Assembly (NCBI GenBank): GCA_016933055.1
Contig: JAFGBS010000021.1
Span: 60,001 to 92,000, forward strand
Direction of reading: 5' to 3'
DNA: 32,000 nt
Source: Promethearchaeota archaeon
Lineage (GTDB): Archaea; Asgardarchaeota; Lokiarchaeia; Sigyniarchaeales; Promethearchaeaceae
The notes beneath the pieces were generated by a model that was given only the letters and a program-made list of their open reading frames with translations, searched no databases and was not told the DNA's origin. Shown piece after piece: positions 17,735 to 29,437 of this stretch. A program made the translations under genes and the position numbers. Position 1 is the stretch's first letter. The number at the start of each line of letters is the position of its first letter.

Positions 17735-19231
17735 CTACGTGACTAAATTTTTCCATACTAATCGGATTTCTTCTTTTGGATTCTCTATAATATTGCAAGG
17801 CGAATCAAATATCATAGTATATCGTTTAATTGTATCGAATTTAGGCCAATTAGGTAATTCTTTATGGTTGGGATCTCCATTTTGTGCAAAAGATATCCAT
17901 GCATCCATTATTTGCTCACGAAGATGTTGTTCAATTGCAGTACCTTCCAATCTTATACCTTCTGCAACATCTTTCGAGGTCAAGTTTCCGAATACGAACA
18001 ATAAATCAAATACATGAGGGCTCGCATTTATTTTTGGAGCTTTATAATTTAATACATACATATAAGTATCTTGGATAGAACTATGCAGTTCTGCTTGCTT
18101 ATTTGTAAATAACCAAAATGCTATATCCGTTAAAAGCATATCATATTCCGCATTTTTTGGGTAATCTGGGGGGTGATAATTCTTTTTGTACACTCGAATT
18201 AATTCTTCAAATTGATGTTTGGAAAATCCAGTTACTTTTCTGATTCCTCTCATAATGAAGAATTTTGCAATAAATTGTTTGAGTTTTGAGGGAATTAAGT
18301 TTGTAGAAAACAATGGAAGTTCTTCCGCATTCATTCCTATCAACAAGGGAATTTTACGTGCGTGACCAGTCTTCCATGCCTTTTCGTAGTCAAAAGGAAT
18401 AATATTTCTGTCTGGAAATGGAAAAAAAAGGCGATCTATAAGAAAACTCCCTTTCATCGTATTACGTTCAGCTTGAATTAACTTTTCAATTGGTAAAGTT
18501 TTGAGTATTCGAGAATCAATTGGATCAATTTTAAGACGGTTAAGGAATTTTCGGGCAGAATTCTGGGAATTTTTTAGATCCGTTTCCATATGGTCAAAAT
18601 CAATTGCACCACTTTGCGCAATTCCTTTATGAAATAATCCCGATGCTTTGGGAGACAACATTAACAAACCAAGTGACATTGCTCCTGCACTTTCTCCGAA
18701 AACGGTTACATTGTTCGGGTCTCCACCGAACGACTTAATATTTTCTTGGATCCACTGTAATGCACAAATCTGATCCTGTAATCCAAGATTTGGTGAGATG
18801 CCCTTAAAATTGAGGAACCCAAGCATTCCTAAACGATATTGGATATTTACTACAACAACATTGCCTCGTTTACTTAATTTTCCTCCATGGATGCGTGGAC
18901 GAGACGCAGACCCGATTACAAAAGCCCCACCATGAATATAGACCATTACGGGACGTTTTACTTCATCAGCATTCGGTGTCCAAATATTCAAGAATAGACA
19001 ATCTTCATTTTCTTCCAGATTTATGGGGGGATCATCCTCGTGGGCTTGAGGGGCTATTGGTCCGACTTTAGTTGCATCATAGGGAATTTCCCAAGAGGTA
19101 ATTAGAACGGGGGGTTCATATCGTGAATTTTCCACTGGAGGTTGGGCATATCTTAAACCCAGGTACTCTTGATAGCCCTCATATTGAAGACCGATAACTT
19201 GACCTAATCGTGTTTCGATTATTGTTTTCAA
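17735..19231 (-). CDS. Type-B carboxylesterase/lipase (para-nitrobenzyl esterase-like)
   Basis: EDCLFLNIWTP, HGGAF, YRLG.LGF, DQI.ALQW...NI..FGGDP.NVTVFGESAG (catalytic Ser), NAEE (Glu) and SPHVFDL (His). TTG start. Confidence 0.92.
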   Translation of the reverse strand: MKTIIETRLGQVIGLQYEGYQEYLGLRYAQPPVENSRYEPPVLITSWEIPYDATKVGPIAPQAHEDDPPINLEENEDCLFLNIWTPNADEVKRPVMVYIHGGAFVIGSASRPRIHGGKLSKRGNVVVVNIQYRLGMLGFLNFKGISPNLGLQDQICALQWIQENIKSFGGDPNNVTVFGESAGAMSLGLLMLSPKASGLFHKGIAQSGAIDFDHMETDLKNSQNSARKFLNRLKIDPIDSRILKTLPIEKLIQAERNTMKGSFLIDRLFFPFPDRNIIPFDYEKAWKTGHARKIPLLIGMNAEELPLFSTNLIPSKLKQFIAKFFIMRGIRKVTGFSKHQFEELIRVYKKNYHPPDYPKNAEYDMLLTDIAFWLFTNKQAELHSSIQDTYMYVLNYKAPKINASPHVFDLLFVFGNLTSKDVAEGIRLEGTAIEQHLREQIMDAWISFAQNGDPNHKELPNWPKFDTIKRYTMIFDSPCNIIENPKEEIRLVWKNLVT

Positions 19232-19234
19232 TTA

Positions 19235-20638
19235 TTACAACTCTTCTTCCTGTTGTGTTTTAATTGCGGTAAGGTGTTCTTTCTTTTCAGCGTGAATTCT
19301 TTCGATTTCTTGTTCAAGACGAATCAGTTTTTTTCCATATAGAGGATGAAAGACTATGAACATTAAACCCACGAGCATAAAGAGTGCCGGAATCAACAAC
19401 ATGAAGGTTTTGATCCCGTTTAAGGCCGATACTGGTTGGATTTCAGTTGAACCCCCCTCTATATAACTTGTGGCGGTTAAGATAGCTGTTACTATTATGG
19501 TTCCCACACTATCCCCTGGTTTGGTTATCAGAGCATTTACTCCAAGAAAAGTAGTTTCTCTACGGTTTCCATATTTCACTTCAAATTCATCCATAGATAA
19601 AGCCGTTAAAGTGCTAGTGTATGCTCTAGGAATTGCTGAAATCCAACTCATGAACAGTAACCCTATCAGAGCCAGAATTGAAGATTTAAAATAGATAGTG
19701 CTCAGATAAAAGAGTATAGTACCAAAGACGACGAACGATCCGACAATCAAAATTGTACGCTTCATTCCCCATACTTGTTTCAATTTCAAAGCAATCCACG
19801 GTGCAAAAAACATTCCAATAGACGTTAATATGAAGTAGGTGGTTTGATTAAGCCCTGGGATGACCAGAATATAAAGATACACAAATGATATTCCGAAACC
19901 CATAGGTATTACATTGAAAAATAGATTGTAACCCACATAAAGCATGAATGATTTCATTCTGAAGGTTTTTCCCAGACCCTTCCAGAATGGTAATGGTTTT
20001 TCGTAGTGAAATTGCGTTCTTTCTTGAATAAGCGAGGTAGTAATAAAAGTAGCTATAATTACAAATGCCCCAATACCAAACGTTAAATATCGAAAATAAA
20101 TCCAACTAAGGTCTTTGATAAACACTATTACAGACCCAATAATACTTGCGAAAAATATGGAAATACCGGTATAATAACTCATCTTAATACGATTATCATT
20201 ATTGCTTTCCATTTCAGGTAGAAGTGCCATCCAACACATAATCACAAGGGATAAGCCATTATCTAATAAACACATAAAAGTAGTGTATTGGATAAAAATC
20301 ACCACTTGATTTGTTAAACTCCATGGCAAAAATGTGAAAGCGAAGGACATCGCCCAAAACACCCCACCCCACCGTATAAAGATTAATCGTCGACTACCCC
20401 ATTTTTTCGGATCAATACTATCACTCCACATTGCTAGTATGGGGTCGTTAATCGCGTTGACGACCATGTAGATAATTGATGCTATGTAGAACCATTTATC
20501 GTCAAGTAATAAATAATCGTGAAAAAACTCATAGATGGTTAAGAAATAGGCAGCAGCCATTAAGTAAAACGGAATTACCATCAAAAGATATACCCATTTT
20601 TCTTTTCGGGTCATAGTGTTGTTTGATAAGGAAGTCAT
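19235..20638 (-). CDS. MFS transporter, GPH family
   Basis: NAINDP...WSD......WGSRR and DEFEVKYGNRRE..FLG motifs, about 12 TM segments. It ends TAA TAA immediately before the esterase TTG. Confidence 0.9.
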   Translation of the reverse strand: MTSLSNNTMTRKEKWVYLLMVIPFYLMAAAYFLTIYEFFHDYLLLDDKWFYIASIIYMVVNAINDPILAMWSDSIDPKKWGSRRLIFIRWGGVFWAMSFAFTFLPWSLTNQVVIFIQYTTFMCLLDNGLSLVIMCWMALLPEMESNNDNRIKMSYYTGISIFFASIIGSVIVFIKDLSWIYFRYLTFGIGAFVIIATFITTSLIQERTQFHYEKPLPFWKGLGKTFRMKSFMLYVGYNLFFNVIPMGFGISFVYLYILVIPGLNQTTYFILTSIGMFFAPWIALKLKQVWGMKRTILIVGSFVVFGTILFYLSTIYFKSSILALIGLLFMSWISAIPRAYTSTLTALSMDEFEVKYGNRRETTFLGVNALITKPGDSVGTIIVTAILTATSYIEGGSTEIQPVSALNGIKTFMLLIPALFMLVGLMFIVFHPLYGKKLIRLEQEIERIHAEKKEHLTAIKTQQEEEL

Positions 20639-27801: not shown

Positions 27802-27829
27802 ACTCTATTTTTCCCTATATAATGTAAAA

Positions 27830-29437
27830 TTAACCTTCCCGCTTCTGTTGGTAATAAGGGTTATCACTTGTTCTAATATACCATTGCAACATATCTTCTT
27901 TAAGTTCCCTAATGATTTCTTGATACTTGGAATTATAAAACAAGTTGATAGTTTCCCCGGGATCGTTTTCTAGATCATATAATTCTTCAATAGCATCTGG
28001 GTGGGATCGCAGGGTTAATTTCCACCTACTGGTGCGCCACATGGCCGTTCGACACACAATAGTAGGATTTTCTCTTTGGGTCTTGGTCTTAATATAATAA
28101 ATCCCCATCCCTGGGGTGCTAGGTGATTGAGGAATAATCTCAAATGCCTGAGGTTCTCGAACATCATATCCACCTTCTGCATGGATAGATTCACGATGAA
28201 ATTCTTTTTCTCCTTTAAGAATTGGCAGCAATGATTTTCCGAAGTGGGTGTAGGGATGTTCAATTCCAACGATTTCTAGTATCGTTGGAAACACATCGAT
28301 GGTTTGCGTTAATGCATGTAATACAGATGTTTTGGGAGCCATCATTGGAACTCGCACGACAAGAGGAACATTCAATAATGCATCTTCCATTCCCGTTGGC
28401 CATTTTTCGGTTAATCCATAGGATCCCGCATAATCTCCATGATCAGCAAAGAAATTAATTATGGTAGAATCATACAAACCAGTTTCTTTTAGTTTTTTAA
28501 GGATTTGCCCAAAGAGATGATCCACTTTGGTGCACATACCATAATAAACGGCAAGAACCTCGCGTAACTCTTCTTCCGAAAATTCATTAAGTCTATATAA
28601 TGTGTGCATTCTGTTTGCGTATAGAGGTTTTTTCTTTCTCTCCTCTTCTTCTAAACTAAAGGGATACGGTGATCTAATCTTTGACCGATCATACATGGAG
28701 AAATATGGTTCCTCTACTTGATAAGGAGGATGAGGATTGTTAATTGCGATATACAAACAAAACGGTTTTTTGCTTTTTTTTGGAGTTTTTGCATAGTGTT
28801 CCAAATATTTCACTGCTTGATTCACGTAATCTATATCGATTGATTCCTTTGCCTTTTCACTAGACACTTTTCCAAAATAAAAGGAATTAAACCACTTCGA
28901 GTCAGTACTATGAGGATTTAATCCAAAAAACGTATTGAGTAAATGTTGAATCTCAGGTTTGTCTGCATCGTTTTGTGAGTATTCCATTTTTCTTATCTTG
29001 TGGATGGCTTTTATAATTTTGACTATTCCAAATTTTTTCATACCTTCTTTTATTATCTTTATAATAGTATGTTTTGAGACCGATTTTCTTTTGGATATAC
29101 TTTCTCTTATGGAATTTTCATGGAAGAGATCATTGCGACCAATCCAAACTACCTCGTATCCTTCTTGTTTTAAGATATGGAATAGATTTTCTTCCCTTGG
29201 ACGCAATAACTGATATAAACTGCGGTGTCCTCCATTATGAGGAAACTGCCCAGTAAATGTGCATATACGTGAGGGAGCGCAGACGGGATTTACCGAAAAA
29301 TTGTGCGTGAAAATAATTCCCCCATCGTCTTGAAGACCTCTAACATTTGGCATTTGGATGCTTGTATTTGTGATCACTTCTCCCCGCATTTCATCGGGGA
29401 TGAATATTAGGATATTAGGACGTTGGGTAAGTTTCAC
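27830..29437 (-). CDS. Cys-type sulfatase (S1, formylglycine-dependent) or related alkaline-phosphatase-superfamily hydrolase
   Basis: RPNILIFIPDEMR, CAPSR (CxPxR), TG..PH..GH, PHPPY, ADHGD, VPL..R and ELYDLENDPGET.NL motifs. GTG start. Confidence 0.9.
   Translation of the reverse strand: MKLTQRPNILIFIPDEMRGEVITNTSIQMPNVRGLQDDGGIIFTHNFSVNPVCAPSRICTFTGQFPHNGGHRSLYQLLRPREENLFHILKQEGYEVVWIGRNDLFHENSIRESISKRKSVSKHTIIKIIKEGMKKFGIVKIIKAIHKIRKMEYSQNDADKPEIQHLLNTFFGLNPHSTDSKWFNSFYFGKVSSEKAKESIDIDYVNQAVKYLEHYAKTPKKSKKPFCLYIAINNPHPPYQVEEPYFSMYDRSKIRSPYPFSLEEEERKKKPLYANRMHTLYRLNEFSEEELREVLAVYYGMCTKVDHLFGQILKKLKETGLYDSTIINFFADHGDYAGSYGLTEKWPTGMEDALLNVPLVVRVPMMAPKTSVLHALTQTIDVFPTILEIVGIEHPYTHFGKSLLPILKGEKEFHRESIHAEGGYDVREPQAFEIIPQSPSTPGMGIYYIKTKTQRENPTIVCRTAMWRTSRWKLTLRSHPDAIEELYDLENDPGETINLFYNSKYQEIIRELKEDMLQWYIRTSDNPYYQQKREG

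Follow-up and report, generated by a model that had tools for sequence, protein, structure and literature searches.

How does an archaeon come to carry what looks like a bacterial rhamnose operon, and is the operon its own? The question is raised by a stretch of 32,000 nucleotides (G000:C30:60001-92000, here called the window) on a 124.8-kb contig of a Promethearchaeota metagenome-assembled genome (MAG; 3.76 Mb in 36 contigs, an estimated 91% complete with 3.3% contamination), in which the genes for an L-rhamnose isomerase (RhaA), a class II aldolase and a RhaB-family kinase lie beside those for a GPH permease and a carboxylesterase and are divergent from a gene for a GH78 alpha-L-rhamnosidase. 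We propose, with a probability of about 0.7, that this is a native and functional locus of the Lokiarchaeum family of Asgard archaea that serves the cytoplasmic use of rhamnosides. Its flanks and composition are those of the host, its genes are conserved in a related contig and under purifying selection, and RhaA, the RhaB-family kinase and GH78 occur together across the order.

In our model, the GPH symporter would import small rhamnose-containing glycosides, the cytoplasmic carboxylesterase would strip their acyl groups, and the cytoplasmic GH78 enzyme would free L-rhamnose. RhaA would then convert L-rhamnose to L-rhamnulose and the RhaB-family kinase would produce L-rhamnulose-1-phosphate, which would be split into dihydroxyacetone phosphate (DHAP) and L-lactaldehyde; for this step, an archaeal family would have supplied a FucA-like class II aldolase instead of RhaD. 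DHAP would enter glycolysis, while lactaldehyde would pass to enzymes encoded elsewhere, candidates being an aldehyde dehydrogenase on contig C17, one of nine aldehyde:ferredoxin oxidoreductases (AORs) or one of three iron-dependent alcohol dehydrogenases. The substrates and reactions in this scheme are predicted from the genes, and the aldolase step is the boldest of these predictions.

Genes were named from the positions of open reading frames (ORFs) and from Pfam and NCBIfam profile searches of the window's ORFs (Table 1). The eight genes listed in a preliminary description of this DNA all correspond to ORFs exactly where it placed them and fall into matching families, and the gaps of 22 and 12 bp that it gave for rhaA-aldolase-rhaB follow equally from the coordinates; a further 117 bp separate rhaB from the permease gene and 3 bp the permease gene from the esterase gene. 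Also borne out is the cytoplasmic location that it deduced from missing signal peptides: esterase, GH78 and sulfatase all lack an N-terminal hydrophobic segment. Its term 'glycan-utilisation-like' is apt in the loose sense that hydrolases, a transporter and catabolic genes stand together, but the locus is not a polysaccharide utilisation locus of the Bacteroidota type, with no SusC or SusD gene among the window's ORFs and no secreted enzymes. The window has no tRNA gene, and no integrase or transposase appears among its Pfam hits; no search for flanking repeats was made.

Table 1. Features of the rhamnose locus, with positions counted from the first nucleotide of the window.
Feature	Position	Strand	Evidence
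Type-B carboxylesterase, 498 aa, cytoplasmic	17735..19231	-	PF00135 (COesterase) 360 bits
GPH/MFS_2 glycoside:cation symporter	19235..20638	-	PF13347 118 bits, TIGR00792 64 bits
rhaB-family FGGY kinase, 476 aa, putative rhamnulokinase	20756..22186	-	TIGR02627 458 bits (cut-off 528)
Short FucA-like class II aldolase, 219 aa, in the position of RhaD	22199..22858	-	PF00596 (Aldolase_II) 153 bits
rhaA, L-rhamnose isomerase, 421 aa, first gene of the rhaA-aldolase-rhaB operon	22881..24146	-	NF002203 607 bits (cut-off 572), PF06134 570 bits
Divergent control region between rhaA and GH78 (putative promoters)	24147..24337		Blocks conserved in alignment with L159
GH78 alpha-L-rhamnosidase, 772 aa, cytoplasmic	24338..26656	+	All four GH78 Pfam domains
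Relic of a second GH78, 288-aa ORF	26935..27801	+	C-terminal half of catalytic domain and C-domain only
Cys-type sulfatase, 535 aa, cytoplasmic; place in the rhamnose system doubtful	27830..29437	-	PF00884 139 bits

Does the locus belong to its host? The genome is that of an Asgard archaeon, as the preliminary description had supposed: it carries a full-length archaeal 16S gene on contig C6 and a eukaryote-type actin (435 bits), and it groups with the Lokiarchaeum family, whose members include a closed 6.0-Mb genome sharing 98% DNA identity with the named record of Candidatus Lokiarchaeum ossiferum. A contig of a second genome of the same genus (G131:C44) is collinear with the window to either side of a variable block. 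On one side it matches the HlyIII gene (69% amino acid identity), orf525 (76%), the esterase (58%) and the permease (68%), two membrane proteins being among these matches, and on the other a beta-helix surface protein (63%) and adjoining genes. The rhamnose genes themselves are found on L159, a metagenome contig of 56.7 kb, GH78 being divergent from rhaA-aldolase-rhaB at amino acid identities of 73, 78, 74 and 64%, respectively, and its cluster directly adjoins the GNAT, HlyIII, NikR and radical-SAM genes also found upstream in the window.

Composition and independent assemblies agree with this picture. The tetranucleotide profile of the whole contig correlates with that of the genome at r=0.997, and that of the 9.2-kb block of rha, GH78 and sulfatase genes at r=0.984, random blocks having a mean of 0.982. 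A separate 41-kb Logan contig from the probable source run spans positions 13000-32000 without a difference and at even depth, covering all junctions. A run from a second study (2017, labelled hot-spring metagenome) contains 37 short contigs that match parts of the cluster and of the flanking DNA at 99% identity or more, some of which cross from the 5' end of the permease gene into the spacer towards rhaB, and the aldolase-rhaA junction; since this DNA is at least 99% identical, a near-identical strain lives in a second sampled habitat beside the sediment source. A bacterial, mis-binned or chimeric contig, which the preliminary description had named as a danger, would explain why the pathway is of a type typical of bacteria, and an assembly of 36 contigs with some estimated contamination leaves room for such errors; but the synteny of the flanks with G131 and L159, the host-like composition of contig and block, the even coverage of every junction in an independent assembly and an Asgard-only clade of RhaB sequences (below) all speak against it, and its probability is very small indeed.

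The genes are also maintained. Between the window and L159, the ratio of nonsynonymous to synonymous substitutions (dN/dS) is 0.06-0.10 over rhaA, the aldolase gene and GH78 (about 0.10 for rhaA and 0.06 for GH78), with dS near saturation; rhaA, the aldolase gene and GH78 are therefore under purifying selection and not decaying. The spacer between rhaA and GH78, aligned with that of L159, shows conserved blocks as well; among them are A/T-rich TATA-like boxes (TTTAAAA, located about 27 nt ahead of the rhaA ATG, and TTTTAATA before GH78), which would fit archaeal promoters and a near-leaderless rhaA transcript. No RNA run was listed as containing the stretch, and no contig from two metatranscriptome runs of the source study falls on it, results that are uninformative on expression.

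What do the encoded enzymes do? RhaA passes the equivalog cut-off of the rhamnose isomerase model NF002203 and aligns over its full length with solved RhaA structures, without gaps to those of Bacillus halodurans (3P14) and E. coli (1D8W); it retains the conserved acidic and histidine blocks GSHEFY, LDxGHxHPTE, VRWDSDHV and LDFFDA. The kinase carries the N-terminal motif DLGASSGR and is matched best by the rhamnulokinase model TIGR02627, at 458 bits versus only 133 for the fuculokinase_coli model, and members of its clade are named rhamnulokinase by NCBI. The aldolase keeps the metal-ligand blocks SSE, HTH and NHG but is not a RhaD: it scores 48 bits with the RhaD model NF002963, for which the cut-off is 170, and resembles FucA and AraD, no model passing its cut-off. 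Isomerase and kinase are thus of the bacterial phosphorylative type seen in the preliminary description, whereas the class II aldolase to which it gave the step to DHAP and lactaldehyde is not of the RhaD kind.

The GH78 gene encodes the N-terminal, concanavalin-like, (alpha/alpha)6 catalytic and C-terminal domains, all above Pfam cut-offs, and its product matches the solved structures 3W5M (470 bits) and 6GSZ (441 bits). The permease has at least seven hydrophobic segments, and homologues of it at 34-37% identity lie inside the rha clusters of other Asgard families. The esterase has the serine motif GESAG, with homologues at 39% identity in three such clusters (L119, L123 and L138).

Several observations weigh against our reading of the locus. 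The kinase remains below the NCBIfam rhamnulokinase cut-off (458 versus 528 bits), and its best solved match (4C23, 297 bits, versus 252 for E. coli RhaB, 2CGJ) was deposited as a fuculose kinase of Streptococcus pneumoniae. The aldolase is FucA-like by both profile and structure matches, its best solved relatives being the fuculose-phosphate aldolases 6BTD (102 bits), 4C24 (94 bits) and 1FUA, and the substrates of E. coli FucA and RhaD are C4 epimers. Among the 154 genomes of the order, 134 (87%) have a member of the wider aldolase family, most of them without RhaA, so that this family is not rhamnose-specific by distribution. Neither a regulator nor a lactaldehyde enzyme is encoded within the cluster, and the genome, 91% complete, yielded no match to the mutarotase RhaM (PF05336). 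Two further points concern the history of the locus: in unconstrained trees RhaA has a long branch and does not join the main Asgard clade, and G131 has no rha genes at the syntenic site (the site itself was read; this genome is 76% complete, and no RhaA was found in it).

It is conceivable, given the relatives of kinase and aldolase, that the pair acts on another 6-deoxy sugar or L-ketose such as L-fuculose, or RhaA on L-lyxose or L-mannose, so that the pathway would not be strictly one for rhamnose. A precedent of a kind exists in three genomes of one genus, in which RhaA was not found and a RhaB-like kinase gene and a gene of the widespread aldolase family are divergent neighbours (G148:C8:74263-76402, G144:C216:33281-35420 and G146:C36:337598-339737); this module suggests service to another ketose or the use of another isomerase. 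We nevertheless regard a different sugar as improbable, in view of an isomerase that passes an equivalog cut-off, a kinase that scores more than three hundred bits higher with the rhamnulokinase model than with that of the E. coli-type fuculokinase, and a rhamnosidase gene that forms a divergent pair with the operon in both the window and L159 and shows co-occurrence with RhaA over the order as a whole.

The assignment of the aldolase step deserves separate comment. By descent the enzyme belongs to an archaeal family, with named relatives from L. ossiferum (54% identity), Heimdallarchaeota and Bathyarchaeia. Within the aldolase tree it falls into a subclade (support 97) together with the copies of L159 and L167, so that members of this subclade are linked to rhaA and rhaB on three separate contigs; the same subclade also holds the copy of L168, from an aldolase-AOR-aldolase trio, and the L. 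ossiferum gene. We infer from operon position on the three contigs, and not from family assignment, that the window's aldolase is a rhamnulose-1-phosphate aldolase. In L. ossiferum CP163304.1, a lone aldolase gene (L166:8001-8654) stands behind an HxlR gene and a gene for a 1423-aa BcrAD/HGD-D protein. On the related metagenome contig L167 (5095-8654), rhaA and rhaB lie between those same genes and the aldolase. The lone gene is probably a leftover of a lost operon. In another genome, a gene of this aldolase family adjoins that of a protein with the xylose isomerase fold.

Is the rhamnose system confined to this organism? What might have passed for a peculiarity of one genome is carried by about a quarter of the genomes of the order, in Asgard-specific clades. 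Among 400 genomes of the phylum, 40 encode RhaA, the present genome included; the others are 38 of 153 in the same order and 1 of 246 outside it. A RhaB-family kinase, counted at E values of 1e-90 or below, is found in 32 of the 38 RhaA-positive genomes of the order versus 11 of the 115 RhaA-negative ones, and GH78 in 32 of 38 versus 15 of 115, associations whose strength Fisher p-values overstate, related genomes not being independent. Of 34 Asgard loci, 13 have GH78 within 10 kb of rhaA, 11 a GPH permease, 14 rhaB and 3 the carboxylesterase. The joint conservation of hydrolase genes with rhaA and rhaB that the preliminary description had set as a test therefore exists for GH78, and with it the permease and the carboxylesterase, both locally and genome-wide, but not for the sulfatase. 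RhaA, RhaB and GH78 were not found in the three closed genomes of the family that were searched. Public records already use the names 'rhamnulokinase' and 'L-rhamnose isomerase' for proteins of Promethearchaeota, Lokiarchaeota, Hodarchaeota and Hermodarchaeota MAGs.

The sulfatase requires a different judgement from the other hydrolases. The preliminary description considered sulfated rhamnans such as ulvan as substrates, and esterase, sulfatase and GH78 might indeed act jointly on sulfated or acylated rhamnans, with the sulfatase as an integral part: the gene is adjacent and intact, with the formylglycine motif CAPSR at residue 53, and its product would be cytoplasmic like those of the other hydrolase genes. 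The genome has 11 sulfatase matches above the Pfam cut-off, ten of them full-length, and an anaerobic sulfatase maturase on contig C27 (TIGR03942, 417 bits, cut-off 349), with which the enzyme could be matured. However, the gene is missing from the cluster of the closest relative, L159, and the sole other match, in one of the 34 Asgard loci, is weak (24%). The gene also converges on the GH78 relic and lies at the border of a block that varies from species to species; small glycosides, not a polysaccharide, are what a GPH symporter implies; and no polysaccharide lyase was seen among the window's Pfam hits. With adjacency as its evidence, a link of the sulfatase to rhamnose is doubtful, and a sulfated rhamnan as the substrate of this locus seems to us a poor prospect. 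The other substrates named in the preliminary description are guesses too.

The neighbouring GH78 relic matches the intact enzyme over 258 C-terminal residues (residues 510-767 of the neighbour, at 36% identity) and so comprises half a catalytic domain and the C-domain in place of the four GH78 domains. The sequence before it, 26657-26934, is closed in every frame and contains no remnant of the N-terminal part. From the C-terminal match and the closed frames upstream, we regard the ORF as the relic of a second GH78 gene.

Where did the operon come from? The nearest RhaA sequences outside the lineage, whether bacterial, Bathyarchaeial or Asgard, are only 53-56% identical, with none above 56% among 5.8 billion proteins. 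The phylogenies that the preliminary description had proposed for RhaA and RhaB gave unequal answers. For RhaB, the window's sequence, all named Asgard kinases and the Asgard kinases of the fetched loci form one clade (support 100) with no named bacterium, the window's kinase lying in one of its two subclades. In a 115-row RhaA tree, 33 of 34 Asgard sequences form one clade (support 98), whose inner order follows family groups, but the window's RhaA stays outside it, with a very long branch. Addition of its two nearest relatives (P0002 and P0003) shortens the branch, and the trio still falls outside. A tree uniting the trio with the Asgard clade is nonetheless not rejected by the approximately unbiased (AU) test (p-AU 0.74) and has a log-likelihood 11.7 higher than the quick-search tree, in a test made on a 54-row subset for a group that was named after the tree had been seen. 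The Bathyarchaeia RhaA, 53% identical and outside the Asgard clade, is encoded on CAZELO010000001.1 (L003, 150701-171939), where neither rhaB nor GH78 nor an aldolase gene of the types seen in the window was detected within 10 kb.

A separate and more recent gain of rhaA-aldolase-rhaB by a genus-level lineage, from an unsampled bacterium and unrelated to the other Asgard rha genes, would explain the position of the RhaA trio and its long branch in the unconstrained trees, a gene order and aldolase type that differ from those of the operon of sister families (24% aldolase identity; below), and the lack of rha genes at the syntenic site of G131. Such a gain is hard to reconcile with a RhaB inside the Asgard-only clade, an aldolase from an archaeal family, a block of fully host-like composition and the lack of any gene above 56% identity outside the lineage; nor is RhaA monophyly rejected, the constrained tree being the better one, though for a clade defined post hoc. 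We consider it unlikely. Instead, rhaA and rhaB were probably obtained together in one old acquisition from bacteria, early in the order, and thereafter inherited, rearranged and frequently lost. The trees are unrooted, so the direction of transfer is read from distribution: the family is common in bacteria and nearly absent from other Asgard orders, which argues for a bacterial source.

The syntenic site in G131 is a variable one. Between the permease and beta-helix genes, 14 kb of other genes take the place of the rha block (L157/L158, G131:C44:10951-24523), coding for an HTH_10 regulator, two MtrH proteins, an MttB-like methyltransferase, a corrinoid protein, RACo, an SDR protein and a divergent group II chaperonin. 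A spot prone to gene exchange thus adjoins the conserved esterase-permease pair. Of the three members of this small lineage that are sampled, two carry the block of rha, GH78 and sulfatase genes, though its arrangement differs somewhat between them. Beside the esterase gene, where the window has the GNAT gene, G131 has a gene for a 1014-aa GH2 protein.

What becomes of lactaldehyde? A possible answer is found in sister families, in which a different operon occurs: 14 of the 34 Asgard loci have, ahead of rhaA, genes for a 204-aa class II aldolase, 24% identical to that of the window, and an AOR (L123, and L113, L115, L116, L119, L121, L124, L127, L128, L132, L136, L138, L142 and L143). In the one locus read in detail (L123, 6997-10703, G270:C8), the gene of a tungsten-type AOR overlaps rhaA by 4 bp. 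GH78, a DeoR regulator, esterase, permease and rhaB genes are often nearby, with DeoR between GH78 and esterase. RhaA and RhaB belong broadly to the same clades as those of the window, and GH78, GPH permease and carboxylesterase are shared, whereas the 204-aa aldolase, the AOR overlapping rhaA and the DeoR regulator are all missing from the window. The position of the AOR suggests that sister families oxidise lactaldehyde with ferredoxin, a reaction of which we know of no description in rhamnose catabolism.

The nine AOR genes and three full iron-dependent alcohol dehydrogenase genes of the present genome all lie away from the locus. The aldehyde dehydrogenase on C17 (near 640337-641299) is 67% identical to one encoded after rhaB in L159. 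The L159 gene (13565-15207) is called as two pieces of 205 and 354 aa, and a frameshift or an assembly error is possible. The AOR on C11, the most similar to the rha-linked AORs (46%), was set aside, its neighbours (a Rieske oxygenase, a SPASM radical SAM protein and FBPase) being unrelated. Likewise rejected was a cluster on C6 (G000:C6:156651-164027; L170:4651-12027), which looks like a different, sugar-acid system: it encodes a 573-aa fusion of D-2-hydroxyacid dehydrogenase and class II aldolase, a 517-aa FGGY kinase, an SCP2 protein, an iron-dependent alcohol dehydrogenase and an AOR. A glucuronyl-esterase-like gene lies near this cluster.

How does the locus compare with known systems? 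With rhaBAD of E. coli (RhaA, 1D8W; RhaB, 2CGJ; RhaD) it shares the isomerase family, down to the metal-site blocks, and the kinase family, and it would share the logic of isomerase, 1-kinase and class II aldolase leading to DHAP and lactaldehyde, here predicted from the genes. It differs in its 219-aa FucA-like aldolase, which is not of the RhaD type, in having no RhaT, RhaS, RhaR or RhaM, with a GPH permease in the transport role, and in its archaeal host, with A/T-rich TATA-like boxes upstream. Bacterial rhamnoside clusters (e.g., of Bacteroidota; L008 and L022) combine rhaB-rhaA with a nearby GH78 as here, for release by GH78 followed by catabolism, but identities are only 30-53% and the Asgard genes fall into clades of their own; unlike the Bacteroidota clusters, the window has cytoplasmic hydrolases and no outer-membrane system of the SusC/D type. 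The fucose operon of S. pneumoniae (4C23, 4C24/4C25) shows the same pairing of a RhaB-like FGGY kinase with a short FucA-type aldolase. That pair accompanies a fucose isomerase, whereas the window has RhaA as the isomerase and a rhamnosidase as the paired hydrolase.

Within the Archaea, the characterised rhamnose routes known to us are oxidative. That of Haloferax volcanii reportedly proceeds by a dehydrogenase, a lactonase and a dehydratase, with an ABC transporter; substrate and archaeal host are the same, but the chemistry is entirely different from the isomerase, kinase and aldolase, with GPH permease, of the window. Passages in PMC11519228 and PMC12525153 trace the archaeal routes to Reinhardt et al. 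2019 (doi 10.1111/mmi.14213), and the passage in PMC12525153 states that the H. volcanii route shows features of transfer from bacteria. Our full-text search of the literature found no paper describing a phosphorylative rhamnose pathway in Asgard or other archaea, the sole related mention found being a 'putative rhamnosidase' in Helarchaeota (PMC6478937).

The window's pathway is thus of a known kind, though found in a host group where it was not expected, and the FucA-like aldolase together with the AOR of sister families would, if confirmed, turn it into a new variant. What reaches beyond routine annotation is the replacement of the aldolase and, in sister families, the link to an AOR. Should the enzymes work as proposed, this would be, to our knowledge, the first phosphorylative rhamnose pathway in Archaea, and a dated example of bacterial catabolic genes that became lasting constituents of Asgard genomes. 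The ability to ferment a deoxy sugar that is common in algal, plant and bacterial glycans is probably shared by many uncultured Lokiarchaeia, and this sugar offers a concrete substrate for enrichment. We also speculate, tentatively, that Lokiarchaeia possess an old, lineage-specific fermentation of rhamnosides, composed of bacterial-type RhaA and RhaB, FucA-like aldolases in place of RhaD and, in most families, a tungsten AOR that would turn lactaldehyde into lactate and reduced ferredoxin. Such a hybrid pathway would be one not described in any domain, and its reduced ferredoxin could serve, for example, hydrogen release in syntrophy. As far as we know, the few cultured Asgard archaea are grown on amino acids and peptides; if the hybrid pathway exists, rhamnose or rhamnosides would be a selective substrate for culturing members of the group.

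Upstream of the cluster, the window encodes another GPH/MFS_2 permease, which shares 23% identity with the first, as well as two paralogues of the haemolysin III family (6030-7439, 7528-8235 and 12919-13740).

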